64,000 nucleotides of DNA from Steroidobacteraceae bacterium (GTDB lineage Bacteria; Pseudomonadota; Gammaproteobacteria; Steroidobacterales; Steroidobacteraceae), in contig DAORVK010000009.1 in assembly GCA_035433705.1 (NCBI GenBank), positions 8,860 through 72,859 on the forward strand, written 5' to 3'. The notes under the pieces were generated by a model. It had not been told where the DNA came from, did no database searches, and saw only the letters and a program-made list of their open reading frames with translations. Numbering within the stretch: the stretch's first letter is position 1; each line of letters opens with the position of its first letter. Shown here piece by piece: positions 1 to 16,477 of the stretch. A program made the position numbers and the translations under genes.

Positions 1-261
<261 letters not shown>

Positions 262-272
262 GCACTGCGGGC

Positions 273-1346
273 ATGTCCGCCGAACCCATTTGCCTCGACC
301 CCTTTGAGGCCGGCGGCTGTCCCGTCCACTGCCGCACACTCATCGTCGAGGTGCTCGAGGACGAGCACCGCCGCGTGCGCGCGCTGGCGACGATCCTCGA
401 TCTGCGAAAGCAGGGCTGGGTTCCGACGGGAGGCGAGCTGCAGGCGGCGGGTCTCATCCATCACATGTCCCTCGACGTGCTCGTGGATATGGAGAGTGGC
501 CGTATCGAGCGCTTCGACCCAAGCCAGCAGGTGGTGGCCTTCGAGCCGGGCAAGCGCACCGCGGGCGAGAGTTGTCGCGATCCGATCCACCTGCTGCGCG
601 GCATGGTTGGCGAGTCGCTCGCCGCGGGCAATGCGCGACGGCTGCGCGAGATCTTCGGGGGGCCTCTCGGATGCAGTCATCTGCTCACGCTCGCGCAGCT
701 CGTGGTGTCTTTCCTTCCAGAGGCGATCGCCCGCGAGGCGCGGAGCGCGCGCGCGCGGGAGCGCGGCCGCGAGACGGGCGAGCGCATCGCCAAGCGCAGC
801 CTCGTCATCGACGCCTTCGAGCGCCGTGACGGCAACCAGGAGATCGCGATCCAGCTGACGGACGTGCACACCCTGCCGTTTTCTGCCATGGTCGGGGTGC
901 TCGATCGATTCGGCGTGCAGCACGAAGTGCGTGCGATCATCCGGGTCGATGCCGCCACGACGACGATCAGCGCCTTCGACGTAGCCGAGCGCACGCGGGG
1001 ACGGGCAGAGCTCGGTACTGCGGTGTGGCAGAGTCGGCGCGAGGAACTCGGCTGGCTCGACGACCGCCCCGTGATGCATGGGCTCGCGCCCGAGCTCCTG
1101 CGGCGCTACGGTGCCAACTCCGCGCACGAGCCGCTGCTTGCCGCGCTGATCAACTTTGCTCCAGGTTTCGTGCAGAGCCTGGCCACGCGCGTCACGCGCA
1201 TGATGGAGCAGGGCGCGCGCGAAGGCGGTGGCCGCGGCACGATGGATCTGTCGGGCATCGGCGGACTTCCGGATTCCTGCTACATGTGGCGCACCGGCGG
1301 ATGCCTGACGAAGCGGCGCCAGGCACGCAAGCTGGAAGGCGACTGA
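273..1346 (+). CDS. DUF2889-like protein (function unknown)
   Basis: ORF 231-1346. The ATG at 273 lies just after the upstream stop. The motif FGGPLGCSHLLTLAQL resembles the GCTHL signature I recall for DUF2889, and the second half looks like a degenerate repeat of the first. Confidence 0.5.
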   Translation: MSAEPICLDPFEAGGCPVHCRTLIVEVLEDEHRRVRALATILDLRKQGWVPTGGELQAAGLIHHMSLDVLVDMESGRIERFDPSQQVVAFEPGKRTAGESCRDPIHLLRGMVGESLAAGNARRLREIFGGPLGCSHLLTLAQLVVSFLPEAIAREARSARARERGRETGERIAKRSLVIDAFERRDGNQEIAIQLTDVHTLPFSAMVGVLDRFGVQHEVRAIIRVDAATTTISAFDVAERTRGRAELGTAVWQSRREELGWLDDRPVMHGLAPELLRRYGANSAHEPLLAALINFAPGFVQSLATRVTRMMEQGAREGGGRGTMDLSGIGGLPDSCYMWRTGGCLTKRRQARKLEGD

Positions 1347-1359
1347 CGGCGCGCCAGCG

Positions 1360-3459
1360 CTACTCGTTCATTTGTCCATGGCGAGCGCGCTCGCGCAGAA
1401 AGTGGCGCAGGGCTTCCAGATCGTCGTCGCCCAATTCATCGAAGGCCGGCATGCCGCGCTCGAGCAGTGCGCCACCGCGCACGATGTGCTCGAAGGCTGC
1501 CGGGGAGAGCGGCACCGCTGAAGCGCGCAGATCCGGTATATAGCCGCCCGCCACGGCTCCCACTCCGTGGCAGATGACACACTTGCCGTAGAGGGCCGCG
1601 CCGCGGCGCGCTTTGGCAGCGTCGATGATGAAATCGGGGTCGTCCACCGGCGTGGGTCGCGCCGGCGGCGGCGCAGCAGGCAGGCGCGCCTTGCCATCGA
1701 GCGCGAAGGTCAGCAGCCGGCGCGGATGCCCGCGCCCGATCCAGCCGTGTTGGGCGCTGAGGGAGCCGAGCAGGACGGTGCCACCCGTCCACCCGGCCAG
1801 AATGGAGATGTATTGCCGGCCATCCAACTCGTAGGTGATCGGCGGCGCAATCGTACCCACACCGAGATCGAAAGACCACAACTCGCGGCCGCTGCGCGCC
1901 TCATAGGCTGTGAGGCGCCCGCCGGCATGCCCCTGGAAGACGAGGTTGCCAGCCGTCGTCAGCACACCCCCGTTCCACAACCCCGGCGTCGGCACGCGCC
2001 AGGCTTCCTTCTGGTGCAGAGGATCCCATGCAAGGAGATAGCTGTGACCGGCACTTGCCGGGATGTCACCGCCCATGATGTTGATGCCGATGGGGTTGCG
2101 CGAATCGGGTCCATTGGTGAACGTGGCCGGGTCGATGCCCAGGTCGTTGTAATGGCCCGGCATGTCGCGTACCGGGATGTAGGCGAGACCGGTGCCGGGG
2201 CTGTAGGCCATGGGCTGCCAGTTGTGGGCACCGTAGGGGCCCGGCCAGATCAGTGCCTCGCCGCTCTCGTAGCGGCTGCCGGGCGCCTCCACCGGGCGAC
2301 CGGTCGCGAGATCAATGCGTTCGGCCCACGTGACCCTGGCGATCTTCTCCGCGGAGATCAGCTTGCCGTTCTCGCGGTCGATGACGTAGAAGAAGCCGTT
2401 CTTCGGCGCGTGCAGCAGCACCTTGCGCGGCTTGCCGTCGAAGGGCAGGGTGGCGAGCACCATATCCATCGCCGAGTTGTAATCCCAGCTTTCGCCCGGA
2501 TTGGTCTGGTAGTGCCAGACATACTCGCCGCTATCCGCATCGAGCGCGACGATCGAGGAGAGAAAGAGATTGTCGCCACCACCCGGGCTGCGCAGCTTCT
2601 GGTTCCAGGGTGCGCCATTGCCGGTGCCCAGGTACACGCGGTTGAATTCGGGGTCATAGGTCATCGCGTTCCAGACCGTGCCGCCACCACCGAATTTCCA
2701 CCACTCGCCGGTCCACGTTTTCGCGGCCATCTCCATGACCGGGTTCTCGAAGCCCTGGGCGGGGTTGCCGGGAACGGTATGAAAGCGCCAGAGCTGGCGA
2801 CCACTCTCGGCATCGTAGGCGGTGACGTAGCCACGCACGGGACCGAAATCGGCGCCGCCGTGGCCGATGATCACCTTGCCCCGGAAGACGCGCGGTGCGC
2901 CGGTGATGTAGCGCAGGTCATCCTTGCCGACCGTCATCACACTCCACACCGGCCTGCCACTCTTCGCGTCGATGGCAATCAGGCGCCCGTCCTGGGTGCC
3001 GGAGTACACCTTGCCGTTCCAGAAGGCGATGCCGCGTATGCCCCAGGCGCGCCGCAGCCTGGCGCCTGCTGCCTTCGCTGTCTGTGGGTCGTAGCGCCAC
3101 AGCAGTTTTCCGGTCCTCGCTTCCACTGCGTGGATCACGCTGAGACCGACGCCGAAGTAGATCACGCCATCCACTTCGAGCGGTGCGGTCGCCACATTGC
3201 CCGGTGCTTCGAGCTCGAGGCTCCAGAGCAGGCCGAGATGCTGGATGCCGCGGGCGTCGATCTGCGCGAGGGGGCTGTGGCGCTGTTCGCTGAAGGTGCG
3301 GCCGTACCCGGCCCAGTTGCGGCCGTCGTTTTCGTCGGCAAGTGCCCGATCATCCACGACGGTGGCATTCACCGTCGTGGTGATCGCACCCTGCACGGTC
3401 ATCAGCTTGCCCAGAGCGAGCACCAGGGCAGCGAGGCGCAACCGGCGCGCGATCATCAC
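1360..3459 (-). CDS. PQQ-dependent quinohaemoprotein alcohol dehydrogenase (type II ADH-like), periplasmic
   Basis: 699 aa with an N-terminal signal-like segment. Propeller motifs DGRNWAGYGRTFSEQRHSPL, WWKFGGGGTVWN, RSPGGGDNLFLSS and SWDYNS are present, plus a C-terminal cytochrome c domain with CVICH. The start is GTG 3459 or the adjacent ATG 3456, overlapping the upstream stop. Confidence 0.9.
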   Translation of the reverse strand: MMIARRLRLAALVLALGKLMTVQGAITTTVNATVVDDRALADENDGRNWAGYGRTFSEQRHSPLAQIDARGIQHLGLLWSLELEAPGNVATAPLEVDGVIYFGVGLSVIHAVEARTGKLLWRYDPQTAKAAGARLRRAWGIRGIAFWNGKVYSGTQDGRLIAIDAKSGRPVWSVMTVGKDDLRYITGAPRVFRGKVIIGHGGADFGPVRGYVTAYDAESGRQLWRFHTVPGNPAQGFENPVMEMAAKTWTGEWWKFGGGGTVWNAMTYDPEFNRVYLGTGNGAPWNQKLRSPGGGDNLFLSSIVALDADSGEYVWHYQTNPGESWDYNSAMDMVLATLPFDGKPRKVLLHAPKNGFFYVIDRENGKLISAEKIARVTWAERIDLATGRPVEAPGSRYESGEALIWPGPYGAHNWQPMAYSPGTGLAYIPVRDMPGHYNDLGIDPATFTNGPDSRNPIGINIMGGDIPASAGHSYLLAWDPLHQKEAWRVPTPGLWNGGVLTTAGNLVFQGHAGGRLTAYEARSGRELWSFDLGVGTIAPPITYELDGRQYISILAGWTGGTVLLGSLSAQHGWIGRGHPRRLLTFALDGKARLPAAPPPARPTPVDDPDFIIDAAKARRGAALYGKCVICHGVGAVAGGYIPDLRASAVPLSPAAFEHIVRGGALLERGMPAFDELGDDDLEALRHFLRERARHGQMNE

Positions 3460-5243
3460 GTTGCCGCGTGTTCCGCGAGTATCTCCCTGGTCACGCTGAT
3501 CCGGTCGATCTTGTCGGTGTGGGTACGCGGAAGGGTCTGGGAGCGGAAATGGAAAGTGTGCGGCACCTTGTAAGCAGCGAGGAGCTTCCTCGCGTGCACC
3601 CGCAGCTCGTCGGCACTCAGGGAGTGGTCGGGCTGAGGTACTACCACGGCCACCGGCATTTCACCCAACCGGCTGTCCGGGACGCCCAGAGCCAGCACTT
3701 CCCGAACGCCCGGGTGCTCGCCCAACGCCCGCTCCACTTCGGCGCAGTATATGTTCTCGCCACCGCTGATGATCATCAATGTCTGGCGGTCGGTGATATA
3801 GAGCCGCCCCTGATCGTCGAATCTGCCGATATCCCCGGTATGCAGCCAGCCGTTCCTGAATGTCGCGGCCGAGTCGGCCGGTAGTCCGAAGTAGCCGCTC
3901 ATCACCAGCGCGCCGCGTACCACGATTTCACCTTGCTCGCCCGCGTGCAGATCACGATCATCATCGTCAACGACCTTGACGTCGGCGATCGGCAGGATTC
4001 TGCCGACCGAATCGGGTTGTGCGATGAAGTCCTCGCCGCTCGAGCTGCAGACGGAACCGTTGGTCTCCGTCATGCCATAGCCGGTGGCAAATACGACGTG
4101 CGGCAACACGTCGTGAACCTTGCGCAGAAGATTGGGTGGAAAGGCCGCGCCACCGGTACCCACCACGGCGAGCGACGACAAGTCGTACTCCTGAAAACCC
4201 GGGGTGCGGAGCAAGTCCCACAGCATCGTGGGAACTGCGGTGATTGTCTGGACGTGTTCCCGGGCGATCAGCCGCAGGGCATCTTCTCCGGCCCAGCGGT
4301 TCAGAATGACGAGCTTGCTGCCGGTGGACAAGGCAGAGAGCACGCCATTGTGACAACCGGAGACATGGAACATCGGCGCGACCATCAGGGATACGGCTTG
4401 CCTCGCCGCGAGCATCGCGGCAGCTTCCGCGCCCGCCAGCGCCCGAAACCTGGCAAACGACACCGCAGTGCCGAATGTAGTGCCGCTCAGTCCCGCGAGC
4501 ACGCTGCGCTGGGTCAGCATGACGCCCTTGGCAAAGCCCGTTGTACCGCTGGTGAACATCATCAGGGCAGGATCGTCGCCATCGACGGGCGCGCAGGTGA
4601 GCCGCGGAGCCGTTTCCCATCCTGAGATCAGCTCATCGAAGGACCGGTCCTGGCGTGGGCGCAGCATGCGAGCGTCGTCGGTCAGTACCACTCTTGCCAG
4701 GTGCTGGCTCTGGCCACCGGCCTCCTGCAGCCGTTCGGCCCGTCTCGAGTCGGCTATGACGAGGCTGCATCCGGTGTCGCAGATCGCACGGTCGAGCTCT
4801 GACGGGGCGCCGCGGCTGTTGACCAGGACTGCGACGGCGCCCAGCGACGTGACTGCGAGAAACGCGATGATCCACCCGGTGGAGTTCTGCATCGCGATCG
4901 CAACCCGCTGCCCCTTCTGCACAGCGAACTGCTGCGTCAGATTGCTGGCGAGCCGCGCCGCCTGCCCGAAGACCTCCCCGAAAGTGTGATGCTTCCCGCC
5001 TTCAACCGTGAACACCCGATCGGCGAAGCGCGCGGCCTGACTGTAGAGATCGGGCAGCGTTTGCGGGCAGCTTCGGAAGAGCCTGCACGGCATCCCGTTG
5101 ACCTCTACGGTCACCATTTCGAAAGGAGCGCCCGGCGCGGTCAGCGCCGCCCGGATCGCATCGATGCCAGCTATGTTGATCCCCTCAAGTGACGATCTCG
5201 CAGGCGAGGCCGGCAGCTTCGAACATTCCGACGATCTGCGCAA
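3456..5243 (-). CDS. AMP-dependent synthetase/ligase (acyl-CoA ligase family)
   Basis: AMP-binding motif MMFTSGTTGFAKGVMLT, then GYGMTET and WLHTGDIGRFDDQGRLYITDR. Start uncertain: TTG at 5243 overlaps the activase 3' end by 59 nt, and the first ATG is at 5117. Confidence 0.85.
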   Translation of the reverse strand: MRRSSECSKLPASPARSSLEGINIAGIDAIRAALTAPGAPFEMVTVEVNGMPCRLFRSCPQTLPDLYSQAARFADRVFTVEGGKHHTFGEVFGQAARLASNLTQQFAVQKGQRVAIAMQNSTGWIIAFLAVTSLGAVAVLVNSRGAPSELDRAICDTGCSLVIADSRRAERLQEAGGQSQHLARVVLTDDARMLRPRQDRSFDELISGWETAPRLTCAPVDGDDPALMMFTSGTTGFAKGVMLTQRSVLAGLSGTTFGTAVSFARFRALAGAEAAAMLAARQAVSLMVAPMFHVSGCHNGVLSALSTGSKLVILNRWAGEDALRLIAREHVQTITAVPTMLWDLLRTPGFQEYDLSSLAVVGTGGAAFPPNLLRKVHDVLPHVVFATGYGMTETNGSVCSSSGEDFIAQPDSVGRILPIADVKVVDDDDRDLHAGEQGEIVVRGALVMSGYFGLPADSAATFRNGWLHTGDIGRFDDQGRLYITDRQTLMIISGGENIYCAEVERALGEHPGVREVLALGVPDSRLGEMPVAVVVPQPDHSLSADELRVHARKLLAAYKVPHTFHFRSQTLPRTHTDKIDRISVTREILAEHAAT

Positions 5244-6168
5244 CGCGCTCGTGCGAGAGCGGCTGCGCGTCGCCCAAGGGATAAGGGCGGTCGAGCATGT
5301 TGTACTTGTTCATGCCGAAGCGGTGGTAGGGCAGGACATTGACCACGATGCCGGGGCGCAGTTGCTGCACGAACCGGGCGGTGGCCGTGACGTTCGCATC
5401 CGTGTCCGAGACGCCGGGAATCAGAGGCATGCGGATGATCATCTGCGCGGGGCTGTCGGCGACGACACGGGCGTTCCTGAGAATCTGCCTGTTCGTGATA
5501 CCCGTTGTCTTGCGATGCAGTGCGTCGTCCATCACCTTCAGGTCGAAGAGCACCAGGTTTGTGTACCTGAGCACGGACTTCAGTCCCTTGGTGGATCCAT
5601 GGCCGGTCGTATCGAGTGTCGTGTGCAGGCCCGCTTCCTGGCAGCGCTCGAAGAGCGCGGCGACGAAGGGCGCTTGCATCAGCGGTTCGCCGCCGGAGCA
5701 GGTGACCCCGCCTTGCGAGCTGCGGTAGTAAAGCCGGTCCCTGAGTACTTCTTCGACGACCTCATCGACGGTCTTGTCGTCGCCGATCATTCGCAGGGAA
5801 CGCGGCCCGCAAACCTGGACACAGTCCCCGCAGTTGTCGCACAGGTCGCGGTTCACCCGGATGCCGGTTCCCGTGAGTTCGATCGCCTGCTTGCTGCAGG
5901 CCGTGACGCAACGGCCGCACTGGTCACAGAGCACGTCGTTGTGGGCGAGCTGGCGTCGGGTCTGCTGGGACTCCGGATTGGAGCACCACAGACAGGTCAG
6001 GGGACAGCCTTTCAGAAAGACGGTCGTCCTGATGCCCGGGCCGTCCTCGGTACTGAAGCGCTGGATGTTGAAAATGCGCCCCGTGAGCCAGTGCTCCGCG
6101 CCAGCCTCCATGTCTGGCTCATCGGGGTCGTCGAGCACCGGATCCGTGTCCAGCTCGCAGTCGCTCAT
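5185..6168 (-). CDS. Glycyl-radical enzyme activating enzyme (radical SAM)
   Basis: FSTEDGPGIRTTVFLKGCPLTCLWCSNPES (CxxxCxxC radical-SAM cluster), plus two ferredoxin-like Cys clusters, CDQCGRCVTAC and CDNCGDCVQVC. It lies 20 nt downstream of the GRE gene. Confidence 0.9.
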   Translation of the reverse strand: MSDCELDTDPVLDDPDEPDMEAGAEHWLTGRIFNIQRFSTEDGPGIRTTVFLKGCPLTCLWCSNPESQQTRRQLAHNDVLCDQCGRCVTACSKQAIELTGTGIRVNRDLCDNCGDCVQVCGPRSLRMIGDDKTVDEVVEEVLRDRLYYRSSQGGVTCSGGEPLMQAPFVAALFERCQEAGLHTTLDTTGHGSTKGLKSVLRYTNLVLFDLKVMDDALHRKTTGITNRQILRNARVVADSPAQMIIRMPLIPGVSDTDANVTATARFVQQLRPGIVVNVLPYHRFGMNKYNMLDRPYPLGDAQPLSHERVAQIVGMFEAAGLACEIVT

Positions 6169-6188
6169 ATGCTTTTCCGCCGGTTACC

Positions 6189-8738
6189 TCACATGCACTG
6201 TTCGGTGCGGCTGATGATCTCGTCCTGTACGACCGGCGACAGCTCCACCCAGAAGGCGCTGTAGCCCGCCACACGAACGACCAGATCGCGGTGGCTTTCG
6301 GGCGCGGCTTGCGCCTGCTTCAGCGTCTCGGTGTCGAGCACGTTGAACTGCACCTGGAAACCACCCTTCTCGAAATAAGTATCGAGCAGGCTGGCGAACT
6401 TCTGCTGACCGCCTTTTGTCCTGAGCGTTGCCGGCGAAAACTTCATGTTCAGCAGCGGCCCTTCAATGAAGGTGCTGTCGAGCTTGCAGACCGAGTTCAT
6501 GGCCGCCGTCGGGCCCTTCACGTCACAGCCCTGGACCGGGGAAGCCGAGGCATCACCGAGGTGCGTGCCGGACTTGCGTCCGTTCGGCAGCGCTCCGGTG
6601 GTCTTGCCGGCCCAGGATGACCAGGCGGCACCCTGCCGGAACATCGTGAAGCGTCGGCCGTAGCCGTCACGATAGCTCTGGCACCGGTCGGTCGCATCCT
6701 TGTACAGCTTGCACATGAGCGCATCAGGCTCATCCTCGTCGTTGCCGTACTTGGGCGCCGCGACGCAGGCCTGGCGCAGCTCCTCGTAGCCCTCCCAGTT
6801 GTTCTTCAGGGCATCCAGCAGGTCCGCCATCGTTCCCTTCTTGTCCTCGAAGATGACCTTCTTGATGGCCAGCAACGAGTCGGACGCGTCCTGGAAGCCG
6901 CGATCGACGAAGGAGAACGCTTCCAGCTGCTGATAGCGGCCGCCGAAGCGCGTGACATCCCTGCCATCCGCGATGCAGTCCTGAAGGAAGGCGGAGATGT
7001 ACGGGAAGTAGAAGGCGTCTTCGTAATAGCTCTTCTCGTACGCCCTGAAGTTCTTCATGGTGTAGTCGTAGAATGAATCGCGCTGCTTCTCGTACGCCTC
7101 GAGCATCTGCTCCCAGCGGGTGAACGTGCGGGGGTCGCCGGTCTCGATACCGAGCTTCTTGTTCGTCCACGTGTCCATGCCGTTGAACAGCGCCCACTCG
7201 AGGAGCTTCGAATGGTTGCAGAAGGACACGACGGCATTGCGCACCCAGGCGAAGCTCTTCGGGTACGAGGTGTTGATGCAGCCTGCCATGGCCCAGTCGC
7301 GCGCATCATCCCATCGAACACCGCGATCCAGCAGATACTCGGTGCCCATGCGGTCGCTGAACCAGGCGGGAATGCCGCCACCGTGATCGCGGTTGCACTC
7401 GATGCCTTTCTCCAGCAGTTCCGGCGCCATCAGCCGGTGATAGCGCAGCGAAACGTGCGGCTGGTGGGTCTTGACCTGCTTTGCAACCTGCAGGAAGAGG
7501 CAGGAGAGCTCGTTTGATGCATCCTTGCCATCGCGTGTCGTGCCGCCGAGCGTGACGTTCGCGTAGTAGTTCGAGGGCGAGATCTCCTGGTGGTCGCGCT
7601 TGCCGACCTGACCGAGGAACATGAAGGGTTCGAACTCGAGCCACTTCATGAACATGCAACCGAGGAGCTCGCCGGCCTCCTGGCGGGTAAGGCGTCCTTC
7701 GTTGATATCCTTCGAGTAGAAAGGCCACAGATACTGGTCGAAGCGGCCGACGAAGGCGTTGGTCGTCGCCTTTTCGATCTCCTGGCCGAACGCCACGAAC
7801 CAGTAGGTCTGCAAGGCCTCGTGGAAACTGCGCGGCGGATTCTCGGGCACCCGGTCGCACACTTCCGCGGTCTTGAGAAGCTCCTTCTGGCGTCGCGGAT
7901 CCTGCTCCATCTTTGCCGCCGAGCGCGCCAGCGCCGCATAGCGATGCGCGTGGTGAATCATGCCCTCCAGGGAAATGATCACCGCTTCAAGCCATTCGAT
8001 CTTCTCGCGGTCCTCGTGGCTGAGGTAGGGGCCGCTCGCCCTGGAACGGGTGCGGATGGCGTCGATGTGCTCCTGCGCCTGCTTGATGTGCCCGCGGAAC
8101 CCAATCGCCATGATCTTGTCCATGTCCGCGCCGGGAGTGAACAGCTGTGGCGTGAGTGGCGGGCGCAGAGCATTGCGGGCCTCGCCCATCAGGTGCATCT
8201 TGCCGCCGTCGAGCGCGTTCTCGGTCTCAAAGGAGCGCTTGGCAGGATACTTGTCTTTCCAGTACTCGGCTGCCTCGCGCAGGTACTGGCGGTCTTCATC
8301 GGCAAACTGGGTGACGGTCACCTCCGAGCCCGCGGTGACATCGACACGATCGAGGAGGGCTGCGAGGTGAATCGGCAACTGCTCGACGCCCGGGTTCGCG
8401 CCCCGGATATGCCGGGTCGGCGCGCCCACCAGAATCTCGTCGTCGCGAATGAGGATGTCCTTCTTCGCGAGCGCGTTCGCGAAGGCTTTCGCTCGCCGCT
8501 TTGCCGGATGCTCGCCTTCCGTCGTGCGGTAGGACTCGGTCCAGTACCGGGCCCGTTGACCGCAGATCGTGGGCCGGGATGCCAGGTAACGCTGCTTCAT
8601 GCGCTGGATCCGCTCCGTGAAGCCGTTGACCTTGTTGATCTCGGCGAGGGGGATCTTCCCGAGCACGGCCGCAATGATCTTCGTCATCCGGACTGTTATC
8701 GGTGTCGCCGTCGCGAGGTCGTCTATTACTGCTGACAT
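6189..8738 (-). CDS. Glycyl-radical enzyme, PFL2/glycerol-dehydratase-like fold, substrate unknown
   Basis: C-terminal glycine radical motif VVRVAGYSAFWVEL (Gly codon 6264-6266). Candidate thiyl Cys in WAMAGCINTSYP (codon 7278-7280), 338 residues upstream. The N-terminus ERIQRMKQRYLASRPTICGQRARYWTESY is typical of PFL2-type GREs. ATG 8738 is preferred over 8825 because GAGGAG sits 7 nt upstream. Confidence 0.9.
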   Translation of the reverse strand: MSAVIDDLATATPITVRMTKIIAAVLGKIPLAEINKVNGFTERIQRMKQRYLASRPTICGQRARYWTESYRTTEGEHPAKRRAKAFANALAKKDILIRDDEILVGAPTRHIRGANPGVEQLPIHLAALLDRVDVTAGSEVTVTQFADEDRQYLREAAEYWKDKYPAKRSFETENALDGGKMHLMGEARNALRPPLTPQLFTPGADMDKIMAIGFRGHIKQAQEHIDAIRTRSRASGPYLSHEDREKIEWLEAVIISLEGMIHHAHRYAALARSAAKMEQDPRRQKELLKTAEVCDRVPENPPRSFHEALQTYWFVAFGQEIEKATTNAFVGRFDQYLWPFYSKDINEGRLTRQEAGELLGCMFMKWLEFEPFMFLGQVGKRDHQEISPSNYYANVTLGGTTRDGKDASNELSCLFLQVAKQVKTHQPHVSLRYHRLMAPELLEKGIECNRDHGGGIPAWFSDRMGTEYLLDRGVRWDDARDWAMAGCINTSYPKSFAWVRNAVVSFCNHSKLLEWALFNGMDTWTNKKLGIETGDPRTFTRWEQMLEAYEKQRDSFYDYTMKNFRAYEKSYYEDAFYFPYISAFLQDCIADGRDVTRFGGRYQQLEAFSFVDRGFQDASDSLLAIKKVIFEDKKGTMADLLDALKNNWEGYEELRQACVAAPKYGNDEDEPDALMCKLYKDATDRCQSYRDGYGRRFTMFRQGAAWSSWAGKTTGALPNGRKSGTHLGDASASPVQGCDVKGPTAAMNSVCKLDSTFIEGPLLNMKFSPATLRTKGGQQKFASLLDTYFEKGGFQVQFNVLDTETLKQAQAAPESHRDLVVRVAGYSAFWVELSPVVQDEIISRTEQCM

Positions 8739-8877
8739 CTCGCCTGCTCCTCTGATGGGCCTTGTTGCGGTAGCCGGCGGTAGTCTAGGGAGCAGGGTGT
8801 CACCCAACAATAAACAGCGACGCAAAACAGCGTCACGCTAGCGCAACAATGTTGCAGCGCTTGGACGTCACAAGGAG

Positions 8878-8891
8878 TTGATAAATCTCAA
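8878..8891. promoter_or_regulatory. Candidate FNR/CRP-family box TTGATaaatCTCAA upstream of the GRE operon
   Basis: 9 of 10 matches to TTGAT-N4-ATCAA. Centred about 146 nt upstream of the GRE start codon and overlapping the LysR stop codon. Single site, no experimental support. Confidence 0.3.
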
Positions 8892-9823
8892 GGTGTGGGC
8901 GTTGTCATCAGCGGATGCGTTTCGAGGTATTCGAGCAGAAAGTCGCTGAACAGCCTGACCCGGCGCGGTACCTCCCGCGTGCCGGGCCGGATGATGTAGA
9001 TGAACGTCGAAAGGCTGTGATACTGCGGCAGAACGGTGACAAGCCGGCCTCTCTCCAGGTCTTTCGCGACCAGGAATGTCGGAATGACGCCGATTCCTGC
9101 GCCGGATCGAACGGCCTCGCGCACGAAGAAGATGTCGTCACAGCAGATGGGACCCTGTGGCTTGAAAGTGGCCGATGATGTCTTGCTCTGCAGCTGCAGC
9201 GTGGGCAGACCACGGTGAGTCACCCACCGATGGCCGGCCAGATCATCGGGCACGCGCGGGATGCCGTTCGTCTCGAGATACTTCGGGGAAGCGAAGAGCC
9301 TCGCGTAAATGGGGCAGGCCGGCCGGGCGACCAGCGAGGAATCCTTCATTCGCTCGGGTGCCGCGCGCAAGGCGATGTCAAAGCCCCCCACCGCGAAGTC
9401 CATGGGCTGGCTGTTCAGATACAGGTCGCAGTGGACCCGTGGATAGCGCGCCGAGAATTTCGTGACGGCATCGGCGAGGAAGGCGGAGCCGAGATAATTC
9501 GGCGCGGAGATCCGCACTTCGCCTGTCGGCTCCCCGAGATGGTCCGGTGATTCGACGGCAGCCTGTTCGAGGGAGGCGATCAGGGAAGCGACGCGCTCGT
9601 GGAGCGCAGCGCCTGCCGGGCTGAGCACGACCCGTCGCGTGGTCCGGTGCAGAAGCGGTACGCCCATGGTCGCCTCGAGCTGCGAGAGGCGCCGGCTCAC
9701 GGACCACTTCGGCAGGTTCAGTTTCCTGGCTGCCGCCGAGAAGCTCGCCGCATCCGCGACGGCGACGAACATGCGCAGGGCATTGAGATCCAGTTCTGCA
9801 CCGTGAGCCTTGTTGGTATTCAT
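8888..9823 (-). CDS. LysR-family transcriptional regulator
   Basis: LNALRMFVAVADAASFSAAARKLNLPKWSVSRRLSQLE is an N-terminal wHTH, followed by a LysR substrate-binding-like C-terminus. ATG 9823 is chosen because the HTH follows directly; the ORF extends to 9967. Confidence 0.85.
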   Translation of the reverse strand: MNTNKAHGAELDLNALRMFVAVADAASFSAAARKLNLPKWSVSRRLSQLEATMGVPLLHRTTRRVVLSPAGAALHERVASLIASLEQAAVESPDHLGEPTGEVRISAPNYLGSAFLADAVTKFSARYPRVHCDLYLNSQPMDFAVGGFDIALRAAPERMKDSSLVARPACPIYARLFASPKYLETNGIPRVPDDLAGHRWVTHRGLPTLQLQSKTSSATFKPQGPICCDDIFFVREAVRSGAGIGVIPTFLVAKDLERGRLVTVLPQYHSLSTFIYIIRPGTREVPRRVRLFSDFLLEYLETHPLMTTPTP

Positions 9824-9914
9824 TGTGGTGCTGATCCAGGATCTCACGGTGAATCGGATGAAGGCATTCTGGAACACGGGTGCAAGGCAGGCAAGGCGAT
9901 CATTTGCCTGGTCG

Positions 9915-9933
9915 ATAGTCTGTTTGGCCGATG
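9915..9933 (+). promoter_or_regulatory. Weaker copy of the recurring 19-nt motif (ATAGTCTGTTTGGCCGATG)
   Basis: 15 of 19 identical to the copies at 16562 and 29165. Lies 67 nt upstream of the 10000 start, in the LysR-divergent intergenic region. Confidence 0.4.
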
Positions 9934-9999
9934 AACGCCCGGCCCGCAGCCATGACAGTAGCCGCAAGCTGGGCGTGCCCGATGCTGAAAGGATCGCAG

Positions 10000-11277
10000 A
10001 TGAACGACGGGGAAACGGTTACAGGAGACGGCAGGATCACGCCCGAGGATATTGAGCGGGCGCGGGCGCAGATCGGGATTCCGCAGTACGAGCGCAATCC
10101 CGTGTTCAACAAAGTGGCGAGCGGCGACACCATCAGCCACTTCGCCTTCGGCATCGGCGACGACAATCCCCTGTGGCACGACGCGGAGTACGGCCGCGCG
10201 ACGCGCTGGCGCGGGCAGATCGCCTCACCCCTCTACGCCACCACCCTCGGCCTCGACGACACGCCGCGCCCCGGTCCGGAACTCAAGAAACTGTTCCGCG
10301 GATTGTTCCGCGGCGTCGGCAAGTACTACTCCGGCGCGACCTGGGAGTGGTACCGGCCGATTCGCCCCGGGGATGTGATCTGGCGCGAGTACACCACTTC
10401 GGGCGTCGAAGTGAAGGAGAGCTCGAGCTTCAGCGGTGGAATCACGGTGATCGACCGCTATCGCTACCACTATGTGAACGCCAACGGCGAGCCGGTCGCC
10501 ACGCACGAGCTGAGCTTCATCAACGCCGAGCGCCAGGCGTCGAAAGACAAGGGACGCAACAAGGACATCCAGCGGGCAAGCTACACGCCGCAGGACATCG
10601 AGCGGATCGACGCCCTCTATGCTGCGGAGGAAGTGCGCGGCAGCGACACGCGCTATTGGGAAGACGTGCAGGTCGGCGATGAGCTCACTCCCGTGATCAA
10701 AGGCCCGATGAGGGTGACCGACGTCGTGGGATTCCATATCGGCTGGGGGTTCGGGCAGATGTACGGAGCCGGGCCGCTTCGCTACGGCTGGAAGCAGCGT
10801 CGGCGGACACCGGCGTTTTACTCAACGGATGAGTTCGGCGTGCCGGACATCGTGCAGCGCTTGCACTGGGATCCGGCTCGCGCCCGTGAACTCGGCCTGC
10901 CCGCGCCCTACGATTACGGCACCATGCGCACGAACTGGCTCGCGCATCTGCTGACGAACTGGATGGGTGACGACGGGTGGCTCGTGCGCCTGCAGACCGA
11001 GATGCGCGCCTTCAACTTTCTCGGCGACACCACGATCTGCTCGGGCGTGGTGCAGGCAAAGACGATCGAAGGCGCACGCCGTCTCGTGCACATCGAGGTA
11101 AAGGCGACCAATCAGCGAGGTGAAATCACGAGCCCGGGCACAGCTACCGTCATGTTGCCATCGCGCGAAGCAGGAGCGGTCGTTCTGCCCGCGCCGTCCG
11201 AGGCGCTGATTTCCCGCGGCGCAAACATGATGGCAGAAGCGGCCGATCGCAACAGGAGCCGCAAAGGTGGGCCATAG
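10000..11277 (+). CDS. Double hot-dog acyl dehydratase (MaoC N-terminal-like plus MaoC-like domains)
   Basis: DTISHFAFGIGDDNPLWHD in the N-terminal half and hot-dog-like GDTTICSGVVQAKTIEG...VHIEVKATNQRGEITSPGTATV at the C-terminus. AAGGA lies 7 nt before ATG 10000. Confidence 0.75.
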   Translation: MNDGETVTGDGRITPEDIERARAQIGIPQYERNPVFNKVASGDTISHFAFGIGDDNPLWHDAEYGRATRWRGQIASPLYATTLGLDDTPRPGPELKKLFRGLFRGVGKYYSGATWEWYRPIRPGDVIWREYTTSGVEVKESSSFSGGITVIDRYRYHYVNANGEPVATHELSFINAERQASKDKGRNKDIQRASYTPQDIERIDALYAAEEVRGSDTRYWEDVQVGDELTPVIKGPMRVTDVVGFHIGWGFGQMYGAGPLRYGWKQRRRTPAFYSTDEFGVPDIVQRLHWDPARARELGLPAPYDYGTMRTNWLAHLLTNWMGDDGWLVRLQTEMRAFNFLGDTTICSGVVQAKTIEGARRLVHIEVKATNQRGEITSPGTATVMLPSREAGAVVLPAPSEALISRGANMMAEAADRNRSRKGGP

Positions 11278-12611: not shown

Positions 12612-14148
12612 CGCGGCCGATCTCATCCTGCACAATGCCAGGGTCATCACCTGGGATGCGCAACGGCCGTACGCCGATCTGGTAGCCATCCGCGGGGAGC
12701 GGATTCTCGCCACCGGCAGCCAGGACGACCTCGGTCGATTCCAGGGGCCGGGCACGCGGCTCATCGATTGCGAAGGTGGCGGCGTGATGCCGGGCATCAA
12801 CGACGCTCACTGCCATCCGCTGGCCCTCGCCGTCGCGCTGCTCAGTGTCGACTGCGCGCCCGAGGCAGTCGAGGACATTGCCGGCATCACGGCTGCGATC
12901 CGGCGACGTGCGGCACAGACCGCGGAAGGCGAGTGGATCCGGGCAGCCAATTACGATGAATTTCATCTGCGCGAGAAACGCCCGCCCACCGCTCGAGAAC
13001 TGGACAGGGCCGCGCCGCATCACCCGGTGATACTGATGCATCGCACGGCCGGCCATTGTGTTCTGAACAGCCTCGCGCTGAAGCGGGCTGCCATCACTCG
13101 CGACACGCCGGATCCGCCGGGTGGCACAGTCCACCGGGATCCGGTGACCGACGAACCAAGCGGGTTGATCATCGGACGGAATGCGCGGGTGGAAGCTGCG
13201 CTACCACCGATCGCGGCGGAGGAGCTGATCCGGGGCATGAAGCTCGCTACCGGGCAATTCCTCGCGCACGGCATTACATCGCTGCAGGACACCGGCTGGA
13301 ACAACGGGCTGCGGCACTGGCAGGAGTGGCGCCGCCTGATCGAATGCGGTGCCGCGGTGTGCCGCGTCTCGGTGCTGATGGGCATCGATGCGCTGGATGA
13401 GTTGCCTGAAGCGGGCCTGTCGATGGACGCCGGTGACAGTCGCCTGCGCATTGGTGGCATCAAGCTCGCGCTCGACGAAAGCACTGGCTGCGCCGCACCG
13501 CCGCAGGAAGACGTCAATCGCCAGGCGCTGCGCGCTGCGCGGGCAGGGTTCAGCGTCGGTCTGCATGTCAGCGATGTCCCGATGCTCGAGGGCGCTATCG
13601 CAGCCATCCAGTACGTCAGCAGGCAGCTGCCCGTAGCCAAGGGGCGTTTTCGTCTGGAACATTGCACCGTCTGCCCACCCGAGTTGTTGCTGAAGGCCAG
13701 GGCTTGCCGGGCGATCGTGGTCGCACAGCCAGCCTTTCTTCGCTACATGGGGCAGCCGTATCTGGAACAGGCGACACCTCAGCAGGCCGGCTGGTTCCTG
13801 CCTCTCGGTTCCTTGCGCCGCTGGGGCGTCAGGGTCGCCCTGAGTTCCGATGCGCCGCTGGTGCCGTGCAATCCGTGGATCGGCATCGAGGCTGCGGTGA
13901 GCCGACGGACGGACACGGGGCAGATCCTTGCGTGTCGCGAGGGCGTGACGCTGCTCGAGGCGCTGGAGATGTACACGCAGGGCGGTGCGCAGGCCTCCTT
14001 CGAGGCTGACAGGAAAGGGCGCATCGGCCCGGGAATGCTTGCCGACCTGATGGTGCTGAACAGGAATCCGGTCCCAATGGAGCCCGGGGAGATTCAGGAG
14101 CTGCGCGTGGTCCGCTGCCTCATCGGCGGCAAGGTTGTGCGTGAGTAG
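12601..14148 (+). CDS. Amidohydrolase-family metal-dependent hydrolase (Amidohydro_3 / YtcJ-like)
   Basis: ADLILHNARVITWD...VMPGINDAHCHP matches the metal-binding HxH region, and the C-terminus has ADLMVLNRNP. ATG 12601 overlaps the upstream stop; ATG 12580 is also possible. Confidence 0.8.
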   Translation: MAGSAADLILHNARVITWDAQRPYADLVAIRGERILATGSQDDLGRFQGPGTRLIDCEGGGVMPGINDAHCHPLALAVALLSVDCAPEAVEDIAGITAAIRRRAAQTAEGEWIRAANYDEFHLREKRPPTARELDRAAPHHPVILMHRTAGHCVLNSLALKRAAITRDTPDPPGGTVHRDPVTDEPSGLIIGRNARVEAALPPIAAEELIRGMKLATGQFLAHGITSLQDTGWNNGLRHWQEWRRLIECGAAVCRVSVLMGIDALDELPEAGLSMDAGDSRLRIGGIKLALDESTGCAAPPQEDVNRQALRAARAGFSVGLHVSDVPMLEGAIAAIQYVSRQLPVAKGRFRLEHCTVCPPELLLKARACRAIVVAQPAFLRYMGQPYLEQATPQQAGWFLPLGSLRRWGVRVALSSDAPLVPCNPWIGIEAAVSRRTDTGQILACREGVTLLEALEMYTQGGAQASFEADRKGRIGPGMLADLMVLNRNPVPMEPGEIQELRVVRCLIGGKVVRE

Positions 14149-14161
14149 GGCCTCTTGACCA

Positions 14162-14788
14162 TCATCCGGCGGGGCGCGCAAGGTGCTCGTTCGCGTCCTG
14201 CAGCGAGGCATAACCGTACTGCTTCGCGGTGCAGGCCAGGGTGATCCCGGAACCATTGATACCCTCCGCGCACTGCTGCTCGACGTGGGCGAGGTAAAGT
14301 TCGAGTGTTCCGATCGAGTACGTGGCCAGCTCGCCCGTCAGGTAGGTTTCGAGCGAGGTCACTTGCGGCCGGTCTTCCGATCTGTAGATAGGGCGGCCCT
14401 TCGCCATGAGGCTCGGGTACAGCCTGGCGAGGGCGACTTCCCAGGCGAGGATGATCGGGACGATCTGCGCAATCAGATCGAGCGCGCGCGGCGCCACGAC
14501 CGGCAACAGGCGCGCGATGCGCGCGTATTCATCCGGCGCGGTCGATCGCATCATGTGGCCATATTTCTCGGTGAGCAGGTTGCGACCGGTGAGCGTCGCG
14601 TCCTTCAGATCGGTCAGGTAGCTTTCCAGCAGGGCATCCGACCAGCTCGCCAGCTGCGCCGCGCGCATGATTGCGAATGTACCGGGACTCTGCTGACAGG
14701 AGGCTTGGCCACCAGAGTTCGGAACCCGACTGAACATCTCCCATTCGCGCGCGACCAGCTCGTCCACGAGGACCTTCGTCCGGTTCAT
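14162..14788 (-). CDS. DUF4125-family protein
   Basis: LVAREWEMFSRVPNSGGQASCQQSPGTFAIMRAAQLASWSDALLESYLTDL...GRNLLTEKYGHMMRSTAPDEY matches my recollection of the DUF4125 N-terminal signature. Confidence 0.7.
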   Translation of the reverse strand: MNRTKVLVDELVAREWEMFSRVPNSGGQASCQQSPGTFAIMRAAQLASWSDALLESYLTDLKDATLTGRNLLTEKYGHMMRSTAPDEYARIARLLPVVAPRALDLIAQIVPIILAWEVALARLYPSLMAKGRPIYRSEDRPQVTSLETYLTGELATYSIGTLELYLAHVEQQCAEGINGSGITLACTAKQYGYASLQDANEHLARPAG

Positions 14789-14837: not shown

Positions 14838-15761
14838 CTAAAGAGCCGACAGGTGTTGCCGGAGTTGCGGATCGGCGATACGGGCCTGGACCGAAGGCGC
14901 GTGATCCATCAGAAAGCTGCTCGGCGAATCAGTCAGCGCCTGGCGCTGCAATTCTCCGATCAATTCTCCAGCAATTTGCTCCATCAGCTGCGCTCTCTCG
15001 TCGGTGCCGGGGGCTTTCACGAGGCGAGCGACGAGCGCATGGATCGGGGCGCCAAGGATCGGCAAGTCGCGAACGGCGCGGTGCAGCCACTTGTAGAATG
15101 GCGCATAGCGCCTGTTCAGCAGGAAGACGAGCGCGATCGCATCGGCGCAGAATTTCATCGCCGAGTACTCCGCGGCGAACAGTTCGCCGCGCTTCAGCGA
15201 GCGAAGGAAGTTGTATTGCCCGGTCTGGGCGAGCGTGATGCAGAGTGCGGCGATCTTCCGCAGCCGCACGTCCTGCGGGTAATGCGCGAGCAGGGCTTCC
15301 CGCCAGCGCGTGAAATCCCCGAGTGGATCGCTGAAGACCTTGCCGTTGGTGCAGGCAGCCAGCGCATGTTCCGGAATTCGCAGCCACTCGTGCAGTGTGG
15401 CAGGCAGGCGGGCGAGCCCGGTAATGCGCATGAAGAAAGCGCTCGTGCGCATCACGCCAACGCGCCATTCTTCTCCGGGACTGCTTCCCCGCGGCGGGAA
15501 TCCCCGGAAAGGCGTGGGCAAGCCTTCATAGGCTTGCTGCAGGGCCTGGCCGAATTCGCGGTGGTCCTCGTCGGTCAGCCACAGGCAAAAGCCAGGCCCC
15601 CAGTCGTGGTCCCGCGAAAAGCTGTCATCGAATCCGAAGCACTCGGAACCAGGCCCTGCCAGGCCCGCGGCAACTCGCGGCCATAAGGAAGCGAATCGCG
15701 CGGGAGCGAGAGGCGCCCAGCTGGAGCGGTAATACTCCTCGGCCAGTTCGAGCCCCTTCAT
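14838..15761 (-). CDS. DUF4037-family protein (nucleotidyltransferase-like N-terminus)
   Basis: MKGLELAEEYY...GLAGPGSECFGFDDSFSRDHDWGPGFCLWL is the typical DUF4037 opening. ATG 15761 sits 2 nt after the TPR gene stop (TGACCATG). The longer ORF to 16079 overlaps the TPR gene. Confidence 0.7.
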   Translation of the reverse strand: MKGLELAEEYYRSSWAPLAPARFASLWPRVAAGLAGPGSECFGFDDSFSRDHDWGPGFCLWLTDEDHREFGQALQQAYEGLPTPFRGFPPRGSSPGEEWRVGVMRTSAFFMRITGLARLPATLHEWLRIPEHALAACTNGKVFSDPLGDFTRWREALLAHYPQDVRLRKIAALCITLAQTGQYNFLRSLKRGELFAAEYSAMKFCADAIALVFLLNRRYAPFYKWLHRAVRDLPILGAPIHALVARLVKAPGTDERAQLMEQIAGELIGELQRQALTDSPSSFLMDHAPSVQARIADPQLRQHLSAL

Positions 15762-15763
15762 GG

Positions 15764-16477
15764 TCAGCCGCAGCAATAACTTCCTGGCGTATCGCTTCTG
15801 CGGCTGAGCGCCGCGACGAGTCTGTTGATGTTGTCCACGGTCTTGTCGATTCTCGGCGTGTCTTTCGCCTCGATGTAGTGCGCCAGCGCTTCGCGGTACC
15901 AGGGCAAGGCATCGGCCGCCCTTTGCAGGCAAACAAGGGCGTAGGCGATGTTCGAGAGCTGATCGCCGACGCGCTCCCCGTGACCGAGCTGACGGTAAAT
16001 CGCGAGCGCCTGCCTGTAGCTCTCCAATGCGCTCTGTGGCTGATTCATGTCGCGGTGGACGGTACCGATGTTGGCCCACTGCCCGGCGCTGCGCAGCAAT
16101 TCACCGGCCTGCTCATAGCGCAACCGCGCCTCCTCGAAGCACGCAATGGCTTCCTCATACCGCCCGAGGCGCGCGAGCACCAGGCCGCGGTTGCTCAGGG
16201 CAGCCGCCCGGGCGGCCGTTTCCGTTTCATCATCGCGCAGGTGAACGACTTCCGTGAAAGCCAGCAAAGCTTCCTCATCGCGCTTCGTCTGCGCGTAAAT
16301 GCTGCCCGCCATGGCGAGCGCATCGGCTTCGCCCGTGCGGTAGCCGAGTGCCCGAAACCTGTCCGCCGCAACGTGAAATGACTGCAAGGCCCGCTCGTCG
16401 TCGCGCGCGCCGAGCAATGCCATGCCTTCGCGCAGCGACTGGAAGGCAGCATCGTGCATGGCGTTCTCGCTGTTCAT
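15764..16477 (-). CDS. Tetratricopeptide-repeat protein
   Basis: Successive about 40-aa repeats with the A/L/Y/G/E pattern (NRGLVLARLGRYEEAIACFEEA, NIGTVHRDMNQPQSALESYRQALAIY, NIAYALVCLQRAADALPWYREALAHY). Confidence 0.8.
   Translation of the reverse strand: MNSENAMHDAAFQSLREGMALLGARDDERALQSFHVAADRFRALGYRTGEADALAMAGSIYAQTKRDEEALLAFTEVVHLRDDETETAARAAALSNRGLVLARLGRYEEAIACFEEARLRYEQAGELLRSAGQWANIGTVHRDMNQPQSALESYRQALAIYRQLGHGERVGDQLSNIAYALVCLQRAADALPWYREALAHYIEAKDTPRIDKTVDNINRLVAALSRRSDTPGSYCCG

Follow-up and report, generated by a model that had tools for sequence, protein, structure and literature searches.

An atypical glycyl radical enzyme of Steroidobacteraceae and its lineage-specific pairing with a pyrroloquinoline quinone dehydrogenase

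Introduction

Glycyl radical enzymes (GREs) catalyze chemically demanding reactions under anaerobic conditions, and entire clades of them still have no assigned function (PMC13450708). The locus described here raises the question of what one such enzyme does, and why its gene is followed by that of a periplasmic dehydrogenase that uses pyrroloquinoline quinone (PQQ) and haem c. The locus lies in a 64,000-nucleotide stretch of DNA (the window; positions 8,860 to 72,859 of the forward strand of contig DAORVK010000009.1, assembly GCA_035433705.1) from a metagenome-assembled genome (MAG) of a Steroidobacteraceae bacterium. Four minus-strand genes encode, in order, the GRE, its activating radical S-adenosylmethionine (SAM) enzyme (activase), an AMP-forming acyl-coenzyme A (CoA) ligase and the dehydrogenase. 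A preliminary description of the window, made from the nucleotide sequence and its open reading frames (ORFs), had read these genes as one operon around an atypical GRE, had suggested that the acid substrate or product of the enzyme is CoA-activated, and had called the pairing of an oxygen-labile radical enzyme with a PQQ enzyme physiologically odd.

The analysis gives an answer in two parts: the GRE is a real uncharacterised variant, and the PQQ link is a local add-on. The explanation favored here, with a probability of roughly 0.55 on the comparison of sequences and gene neighborhoods, is that a GRE–activase core belonging to an uncharacterised clade has had a lineage-specific cassette captured behind it.

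Results

Membership of the GRE superfamily and distance from characterised clades

By its domains (PF02901, PFL-like, E = 1.5e-147; PF01228, Gly_radical, E = 3e-30), its Cys, its Gly motif and the adjacent activase, the protein is a member of the GRE superfamily, in which radical formation is predicted. The C-terminal motif RVAGYS fits the superfamily pattern RVxG[FYW]. In alignments with PDB structures, the candidate thiyl-radical residue Cys487 pairs with Cys433 of glycerol dehydratase and Cys489 of CutC, and it is invariant in all 151 sequences compared (the 150 nearest cluster representatives and the query). The codons of the radical Cys and Gly and their spacing of 338 residues are as first described. 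Five of the 150 representatives carry Thr or Ala at the radical Gly position and may be recently described aminoacyl radical enzymes. The activase scores 335 bits on TIGR02494 (cut-off 174).

No characterised clade accommodates the enzyme. Its scores stay below every NCBIfam equivalog cut-off (HpsG 483 of 1000, HypD 478 of 1100, CutC 456 of 1050, IAD 418 of 1100, HpfG 400 of 1000, HPAD large subunit 373 of 1150), and the broad PFL2/glycerol-dehydratase subfamily model TIGR01774 gives 520 against a cut-off of 678. The closest solved structures (CutC, glycerol dehydratase, AAD, propanediol dehydratase and HypD) are 29–34% identical, and identity to any solved or curated GRE is at most 34%. Pairwise scores are 439 bits to CutC, 404 bits to glycerol dehydratase, and 302–304 bits (26–27% identity) to benzylsuccinate synthase (BSS) and methylalkylsuccinate synthase (MASS). 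A tblastn search of plasmids returned no BSS or close relative, the best match being 34% identical. The AlphaFold2 (AF2) model is predicted with good confidence (pLDDT 89, pTM 0.91), and in Foldseek its TM-score normalised to the query is 0.82–0.87 across the listed GRE structures, with no specific nearest neighbor.

The Cys loop separates the enzyme from the known families in several ways. It reads AGCINT and contains a single Cys, so the Cys-Cys pair of formate lyases is missing, and TIGR01255 gives 75 bits against a cut-off of 994. The CXE motif of eliminases is replaced by C487-I-N489, in which Asn489 pairs with the Glu of CutC and glycerol dehydratase in the PDB alignments. Asn489 and the IAD and HPAD scores also set the protein apart from the arylacetate decarboxylases (HPAD, IAD, PhdB and AAD; the AAD loop is GCVLH, and PhdB was compared by its published description). 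No small iron–sulfur (FeS) subunit gene is present in the flanks of the GRE gene (20 and 149 nt) and no Cys-rich small ORF lies nearby, and the same holds in the relatives. The first reading of the GRE is supported: an atypical enzyme outside the characterised clades, given its sub-cut-off profile scores, its PDB identity of at most 34% and its own conserved loop; Asn at Cys+2 without a Cys-Cys pair; and flanks too small for the small subunits of an X-succinate synthase.

A clade with Asn two residues after the radical cysteine

The GC[I/V]N loop is kept in homologues down to about 45% identity, and the hosts of this clade are Steroidobacteraceae, Candidatus Binatia, "Deltaproteobacteria", Halieaceae, Desulfosarcina and Chloroflexota. 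The clade signature comprises K323, N327, W498, R500, R701 and Q702. In a library clustered at 50% identity, the combination K323/N327/R500/R701/Q702 is limited to about 5 of about 1,900 GRE clusters. A metagenome scan with the Cys-loop pattern gave seven loci. At two loci of the clade, one on a metagenome contig (L095) and one in a Desulfosarcina MAG (L004), no activase lies within 10 kb of the GRE gene. A literature search on the GC[I/V]N clade, on GREs of Binatia or Steroidobacter and on ACG33_03645, the Steroidobacter denitrificans homologue of the ligase, found nothing relevant.

We know of no report of Asn at Cys+2 for any characterised GRE. Among the 151 sequences, only 61 have Glu at this position; the other residues include Gln in 13, Asp in 11, Ser in 11, His in 9, Gly in 8 and Asn in 7, and residues other than Glu are therefore common in sequence space. 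CXE is the motif of eliminases and isomerases (PMC13450708). PhdB has CXQ and is inactive as the Q484E variant, PflB and BssA have Ser at Cys+2, and HypD and CutC lose their activity when the Glu is changed to Gln (PMC7079210). The preliminary description took Glu at this position as general among decarboxylase GREs, a rule that is too broad, since PhdB has Gln (PMC7079210) and AAD has Leu.

Five residues of glycerol dehydratase that we take to be substrate-binding (H164, S282, E435, D447 and Y640) correspond in a pairwise alignment to T201, N327, N489, R500 and Q702. The clade's own K323, N327, R500, R701 and Q702 occupy positions aligned with such residues. With these pocket residues replaced, the GRE would not be a diol dehydratase, and the pocket looks suited to an anionic substrate. 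It is distinctly improbable that the enzyme is a 1,2-eliminase or isomerase in which another base takes over from the Glu at Cys+2. The nearest sequences and folds are indeed those of eliminases (CutC 439 bits, glycerol dehydratase 404 bits), and the sister subclades P0082 and P0086 carry CXD or CXE. However, four of the presumed substrate-binding residues of glycerol dehydratase are all replaced, the HypD and CutC enzymes do not tolerate the change from Glu to Gln (PMC7079210), and Asn is conserved across the clade.

A ligase–dehydrogenase cassette behind the activase gene

Two loci with closely similar GREs, L083 (94% identical) and L089 (89% identical), share the synteny of the window without the ligase and dehydrogenase genes. 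The shared block comprises luciferase-like, SnoaL, TPR, DUF4037, DUF4125, amidohydrolase, epimerase, MaoC-like, LysR, GRE and activase genes, and in both loci a convergent DUF2889 gene directly follows the activase gene. The DNA of L083 matches the window up to the activase stop codon (5185) and picks up again at 1324, with 45 nt in between compared with 3860 nt in the window. The two additional genes thus form an inserted cassette of about 3.8 kb that begins just after the activase stop codon and ends at the short ancestral spacer before the DUF2889 gene. The PQQ gene is absent from L083, from L089 and from about 15 other distinct clade loci surveyed. As a general partner of the GRE, the PQQ enzyme can be set aside, as among the loci surveyed it is confined to the sub-lineage of the window and of a fourth locus, L100.

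Over 9.2 kb, L100 and the window are colinear at 85% nucleotide identity; L100 shares all four genes and exactly the same junction, TGAGGGGATCAACATAGC. Its PQQ gene is followed downstream, at 9321–11138 of that locus, by a SnoaL-like gene, the native neighbor of this type of PQQ-dependent alcohol dehydrogenase (ADH), and by a fragment of an rve integrase. This arrangement suggests that the cassette arrived by insertion sequence (IS)-mediated insertion and was later trimmed in the window lineage. GRE identities (94.7% between the window and L100, 93.8% between the window and L083, 93.1% between L100 and L083, and about 88% to L089) fit a single insertion in the ancestor of the window genome and L100. 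Deletion in the relatives was considered in place of insertion and rejected: it needs two independent precise deletions, and it leaves the lost ligase start, the SnoaL gene and the rve remnant unexplained. A ligase with an intact native N-terminus (P0247, 81% identical to that of the window) and a GRE of the same 90% cluster (P0366) appear to lie on one 55,436-bp Steroidobacteraceae contig, whose clade GRE is MDY0066373.1 and which may represent an intermediate arrangement.

Between the window and L100, the GRE and the activase have ratios of non-synonymous to synonymous substitution rates (dN/dS) of 0.064 and 0.083, and the ligase and the dehydrogenase have ratios of 0.13 and 0.133, at dS values of 0.45–0.68, which points to purifying selection on all four genes. 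Given the identical junction in L100 and this selection, the four-gene operon is therefore real, yet lineage-specific and derived.

The same evidence bears on the opposite view, in which the PQQ/haem-c dehydrogenase is integral to the chemistry of the GRE and the four genes are an ancestral functional unit. The tight spacing, the TGATG overlap and the retention of the arrangement, with purifying selection on all four genes, in two genomes of 85% nucleotide identity would all be expected of such a unit. It is nonetheless very improbable: the cassette is absent from the syntenic L083 and L089, no PQQ homologue occurs at the other GRE loci surveyed, orthologues of the PQQ-ADH (70–82% identical) are found elsewhere without GRE or ligase, and the junction destroyed the ligase start codon and is accompanied by an IS remnant in L100.

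The ligase gene lacks its own start

The ligase ORF (3456–5243) matches the AMP-binding domain at E = 2e-83 and includes the C-terminal domain. Its best model, CasG (steroid-24-oyl-CoA synthetase), gives 404 bits against a cut-off of 750, and the protein is predicted to be an ANL acyl-CoA ligase for which identity with CasG is not demonstrable. It is 78% identical to S. denitrificans ACG33_03645. Homologues begin MT(G/N)...AIRAALTAPGAPFEM, the native form being MTGIAGNEAIR..., and the window codon at the position of their Met is GGG (5183–5181), two bases past the activase TGA. By this alignment, therefore, the junction took away the ligase's own start and upstream region.

No ATG, GTG or TTG occurs in the ligase frame between the activase stop and ATG 5120. 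The 63 nt at 5183–5121 match the native N-terminus of the homologues and differ from L100 at five synonymous and no non-synonymous positions, and this stretch therefore appears to be translated. A GAGGGG motif lies 6 nt before ATA 5174, and the first canonical start codon downstream is ATG 5120. A non-canonical codon just past the activase stop probably serves as the ligase start, with ATA 5174 as a candidate; AGIDAIRAALTAPGAPFE is the ligase peptide expected with a non-ATG start. Gene callers place the start of two homologues that are 99% and 84% identical (P0241 and P0244) at the matching internal ATG. The start near 5243 given in the preliminary description is unlikely: TTG 5243 lies inside the activase gene, and the overlapping stretch is unconstrained in the ligase frame, in which it changes non-synonymously.

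A single transcription unit, as first described, is likely on this evidence because the ligase lacks expression signals of its own, its start and upstream region having been lost at the junction, and yet is under purifying selection. This also speaks to the possibility that the cassette is an unrelated passenger, which would have landed behind the activase gene by IS-mediated transposition, would serve a separate alcohol or steroid-acid pathway and would be read through from the GRE promoter. The rve remnant and native SnoaL gene in L100, the fact that the orthologues work in other contexts, and the steroid/long-chain type of the ligase, unlike the MbcS-like ligases of Binatia-type operons (see below), agree with a passenger. 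Conversely, a ligase without its own start and upstream region has a dN/dS of 0.13 at a dS of about 0.7, indicating that expression from the GRE operon has been kept, and other clade loci recruit ligases independently. A passenger is considered unlikely, and capture of a module that works with the GRE is preferred.

The regulatory region

A block at 8780–8850, between the LysR and GRE genes, is conserved in the window, L100, L083 and L089. It contains ATTGTTGC, GTGACGCTGTTTTGCG and CTCCCTAGACT, and it is probably the promoter and operator of the GRE operon. The intergenic region also has a GAGGAG ribosome-binding site. A promoter/terminator scan gave no sigma-70 site, and its terminator-like matches were not above the shuffled expectation. 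The hairpin between LysR and GRE was considered as a terminator and discarded, the inverted repeat lying within the block conserved in four lineages and being more likely an operator or promoter element. A possible FNR/CRP-type box, the palindrome TTGAGATTTATCAA at 8878–8891, departs from the consensus at one position. It overlaps the end of the LysR gene at its stop codon and is about 110 nt upstream of the putative −10 element. L100 shares it with the window, and L083 and L089, both of which are without the cassette, do not have it conserved.

The PQQ/haem-c dehydrogenase

The dehydrogenase scores 542 bits on TIGR03075 (cut-off 480) and has a PF13442 cytochrome c domain with CVICH. It aligns over its full length with 1KV9 (ADH-IIB) at 735 bits, retains both the catalytic Asp of SWD and the CXXCH motif, and has a signal peptide-like N-terminus. 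The vicinal Cys-Cys pair that lies next to PQQ in 1KV9 is missing: RRAWGIRG (residues ~130–145) faces SCCDAVNRG, and the pair is also missing in 60 of 60 homologues with an extractable motif. The Cys-Cys-less subfamily is distinct and widespread, occurring in Nevskiales, Denitratisoma and Steroidobacteraceae. Orthologues that are 70–82% identical are found elsewhere mostly in a PQQ-ADH/SnoaL/SDR context, with no ligase or GRE.

The charge of an odd pairing is correct as chemistry in so far as the PqqC step needs O2. Steroidobacteraceae, however, include the denitrifier Steroidobacter denitrificans, and GREs are ordinary in facultative anaerobes. Denitrifying methylotrophs have working PQQ dehydrogenases, and for several denitrifiers a second pqq cluster, pqqAED-puuD-serC-pyrD, is proposed to allow O2-independent synthesis in its late steps (PMC12423496). 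The combination of a GRE and a PQQ enzyme is unusual at the level of the operon and involves no physiological contradiction.

Gene neighborhoods across the clade

The neighborhood survey covered at least about 20 clade loci. Loci of the Binatia and Deltaproteobacteria type contain LysR, GRE, activase, a homologue of 4-hydroxybutyryl-CoA dehydratase/vinylacetyl-CoA isomerase and an MbcS-like short/branched-chain ligase, with acyl-CoA dehydrogenases, an enoyl-CoA hydratase and a MaoC-like hydratase upstream. The dehydratase/isomerase homologue at L093 (13156–14583; also in L002, L003 and L086), which lies between the activase and the MbcS-like ligase, matches 1U8V at 338 bits and carries the Pfam label HpaB. 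In another Binatia locus GRE, activase and ligase are consecutive, and a Halieaceae locus has a hydratase, two ligases and the GRE in a row, with an FAS1_DH gene of ~410 aa. At L081, GRE and activase are accompanied by DUF4125, two MaoC-like genes, a thiolase/DUF35 pair and acyl-CoA dehydrogenases, and a divergent set comprises a thiolase, a ChsH2-like hydratase, two acyl-CoA dehydrogenases and a ligase. The MaoC-like hydratase of the window is 43% identical to the corresponding neighbor in L093 and 87–90% identical to its counterparts in L083, L089 and L100. A LysR gene stands beside the GRE gene in most clade loci.

The partners of the clade are thus acyl-CoA ligases of different families, a MaoC-like hydratase, acyl-CoA dehydrogenases and thiolase/DUF35 pairs. 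The link of the clade is to CoA-dependent processing in general and not to one particular ligase. The proposed CoA activation of an acid substrate or product of the GRE is accordingly plausible from the recurrence of ligases, MaoC-like genes and acyl-CoA dehydrogenases, and weakened as a specific claim by the non-orthology of the ligases.

DUF4125 genes form a separate observation. Such a gene belongs to the block that is syntenic with the GRE, and in the window it is paired with a DUF4037 gene (14162–14788 and 14838–16079), as it is in the close relatives. In L081 a DUF4125 gene directly follows the activase gene (13751–14374), and others lie near distant GREs in Blautia and Dorea loci (L041 and L070). 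DUF4125 may be an unrecognised accessory of GRE systems.

Layout of the locus

The coordinates are collected in Table 1. The ORF list and the domains agree with the four minus-strand genes as first described, the ligase start excepted. GRE and activase genes are 20 nt apart and LysR and GRE genes 149 nt. The overlap noted earlier is present in the sequence: the dehydrogenase start GTGATG shares bases with the ligase TGA. Public annotation starts the dehydrogenase at ATG 3456, giving 698 aa.

Table 1. Positions of the genes and sites discussed, in window coordinates
Feature	Position	Strand	Remarks
GRE	6189..8738	minus	849 aa; accession HQX77871.1; uncharacterised GC[I/V]N clade; Pfam, NCBIfam, PDB and clade alignments, AF2 model
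GRE-activating radical SAM enzyme (activase)	5185..6168	minus	327 aa; ferredoxin-like insert; TIGR02494
AMP-forming acyl-CoA ligase, long-chain/steroid-acid type	3456..5183	minus	ORF extends 3456–5243; Pfam, NCBIfam, homologues
Periplasmic type II quinohaemoprotein alcohol dehydrogenase	1360..3456	minus	ORF to 3459; PQQ propeller and C-terminal haem c domain, CVICH
Candidate thiyl-radical Cys487 codon	7278..7280	minus	Cys+2 is Asn489
Glycyl-radical Gly825 codon	6264..6266	minus	motif RVAGYS
Lineage-specific inserted cassette (ligase and PQQ dehydrogenase)	1366..5184	minus	right-hand boundary approximate (1366–1385)
Ligase 5' stretch without canonical start codon	5121..5183	minus	homologue N-termini; L100 comparison
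LysR-type regulator	8888..9823	minus	Pfam; 311-aa length taken from relatives
LysR–GRE intergenic region	8739..8887	minus	conserved block and GAGGAG ribosome-binding site; alignment of window, L100, L083 and L089
MaoC-like double hot-dog hydratase (FAS1_DH region)	10000..11277	plus	425 aa (annotated); divergent; Pfam
DUF2889 gene	231..1346	plus	convergent to dehydrogenase; abuts activase directly in relatives

Further along, the window is rich in genes of acyl-CoA metabolism (20952–51803). These include four family III CoA-transferase genes, one of which is a fused double gene of 824 aa (32781–35255), three acyl-CoA dehydrogenases, two enoyl-CoA hydratases, a second MaoC-like gene and an HpcH-type lyase. 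A hydantoinase A/B pair at 41779–46128 is similar to acetone or acetophenone carboxylases.

Discussion

A proposed pathway and its alternatives

In the favored explanation, the reaction that the thiyl radical initiates is most likely not a 1,2-elimination, its substrate would have one carboxylate, possibly two, and cleavage or formation of a C–C bond would be the most likely reaction type. The acid product would then be CoA-activated and degraded by a route resembling beta-oxidation; the GRE probably acts before CoA activation. In the common ancestor of the window genome and L100, a cassette was inserted 1–2 nt past the activase stop codon. It brought in the CoA ligase, of the steroid/long-chain type, and the periplasmic PQQ/haem-c alcohol dehydrogenase, probably together with the native SnoaL neighbor of the latter, and was probably moved by an IS. 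Both cassette genes would depend on the GRE operon for their expression. The cassette would extend the pathway upstream: the dehydrogenase would oxidise an alcohol precursor in the periplasm and pass the electrons to c-type cytochromes, and the ligase would activate the resulting or a downstream acid. The most fitting reading of the PQQ coupling is a captured module for turning an alcohol into an acyl-CoA.

Several observations weigh against this explanation or loosen parts of it. The genomes are dense in acyl-CoA genes, so co-location may partly be background, and the ligases beside different clade members are not orthologous (~26–36% identity). The lack of a PQQ dehydrogenase homologue at other GRE loci refers to a survey of at least about 20 loci, and a PQQ link may exist elsewhere. 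Small differences in identity (94.7% versus 93.8% and 93.1%) are what groups the window with L100. The assignment of pocket residues derives from a pairwise alignment and from the residues taken to bind substrate in glycerol dehydratase, and ATA 5174 is a candidate start codon of the ligase.

For the reaction itself, two specific proposals deserve attention. In the first, the GRE would be a radical decarboxylase in the manner of PhdB. Its substrate would be an acid from which an allylic or benzylic radical can form, perhaps a dicarboxylate that leaves a monocarboxylate for ligation to CoA. PhdB has an amide at Cys+2 that cannot be exchanged for Glu (PMC7079210), the CXN loop of the present GRE also has an amide, Arg occupies two pocket-aligned positions, and Binatia-type operons add the vinylacetyl-CoA isomerase/4-hydroxybutyryl-CoA dehydratase homologue and a short/branched-chain ligase. 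Known decarboxylases, however, yield hydrocarbons or phenols that are not CoA-activated, and the proposal is purely inferential, with PhdB compared by description only; it is regarded as unlikely.

The second proposal, a fumarate-adding hydroalkylase resembling X-succinate synthases but without small subunits and feeding a bbs-like beta-oxidation, draws on the neighbors, which recall a bbs cluster: thiolase and DUF35, acyl-CoA dehydrogenases, hydratases, and a CoA ligase or family III CoA-transferase. The GRE has Arg at Cys+13 and Gln at Cys+215, and the fumarate-binding R508 and Q707 of BSS are at +15 and +214 (PMC12358834), a comparison of spacing without residue-level alignment. Against it stand the lack of beta or gamma subunit genes, a CIN loop in place of the Ser-containing loop of BssA (PMC7079210) and a similarity to BSS and MASS (302–304 bits, 26–27%) below that to eliminases, so that the scores point away from X-succinate synthases. 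This proposal is more doubtful still than an eliminase with an exchanged base.

A broader and speculative claim, to which a low probability is likewise given, is that the clade catalyzes a GRE reaction type that is not yet known, either C–C cleavage or decarboxylation of an aliphatic or alicyclic (di)carboxylate or a subunit-free addition of the fumarate type. In nitrate-respiring Steroidobacteraceae, Binatia and relatives, such a reaction would open an anaerobic degradation route that depends on CoA, and in the window lineage this route would be wired within one operon to a periplasmic PQQ/haem-c dehydrogenase. If this is true, the PQQ enzyme and a supply of PQQ are needed under the anoxic conditions that the GRE requires.

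Significance

The GC[I/V]N clade offers a concrete target for a new substrate and possibly a new reaction type, with a clear signature and consistent genomic partners, and it occurs in widespread uncultured bacteria, including Steroidobacteraceae. The cassette is a cleanly resolved case of operon growth: landing at a stop codon, loss of the start of the incoming gene, and retention of the arrangement by selection. Provided that its induction takes place in the absence of oxygen, the operon would be a natural system for the anaerobic supply of cofactor to PQQ enzymes.

Comparison with known systems

The dehydrogenase resembles ADH-IIB of Pseudomonas putida HK5 (1KV9) in its PQQ propeller, its SWD Asp and its C-terminal cytochrome domain with CXXCH. 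Unlike ADH-IIB, it belongs to a subfamily without the vicinal Cys-Cys pair, and its gene sits behind a GRE operon.

The B12-independent glycerol and 1,2-propanediol dehydratases and CutC are similar to the GRE at 31–34% identity and a query-normalised TM-score of 0.84–0.86. The GRE eliminases share with it the 10-stranded barrel, the Cys and Gly loops, the Cys–Gly spacing and an activase with a ferredoxin-like insert. In contrast, their CXE is CXN here, H164, S282, D447 and Y640 of glycerol dehydratase are T, N, R and Q, the window GRE falls far below the equivalog cut-offs, and no microcompartment genes are seen at this locus.

Among characterised GREs, PhdB alone carries an amide (Gln) at Cys+2, and it loses its activity when this residue is Glu (PMC7079210); like the system described here it consists of a single catalytic subunit and an activase. 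The differences, with PhdB again taken from its description, are Asn in place of Gln, Arg-rich pocket-aligned positions and neighbors that belong to CoA pathways.

Benzylsuccinate synthase and the bbs pathway differ from the present locus in their beta and gamma FeS subunits, in the Ser of the BssA loop where CIN stands here, in sequence (26–27% identity) and in the use of the BbsEF transferase instead of a ligase (PMC7079210; PMC12358834). The two systems nevertheless share the lack of Glu at Cys+2, an occurrence in facultative denitrifiers and the same overall logic, in which the acid of a GRE would pass through CoA activation to acyl-CoA dehydrogenase, hydratase and thiolase/DUF35.

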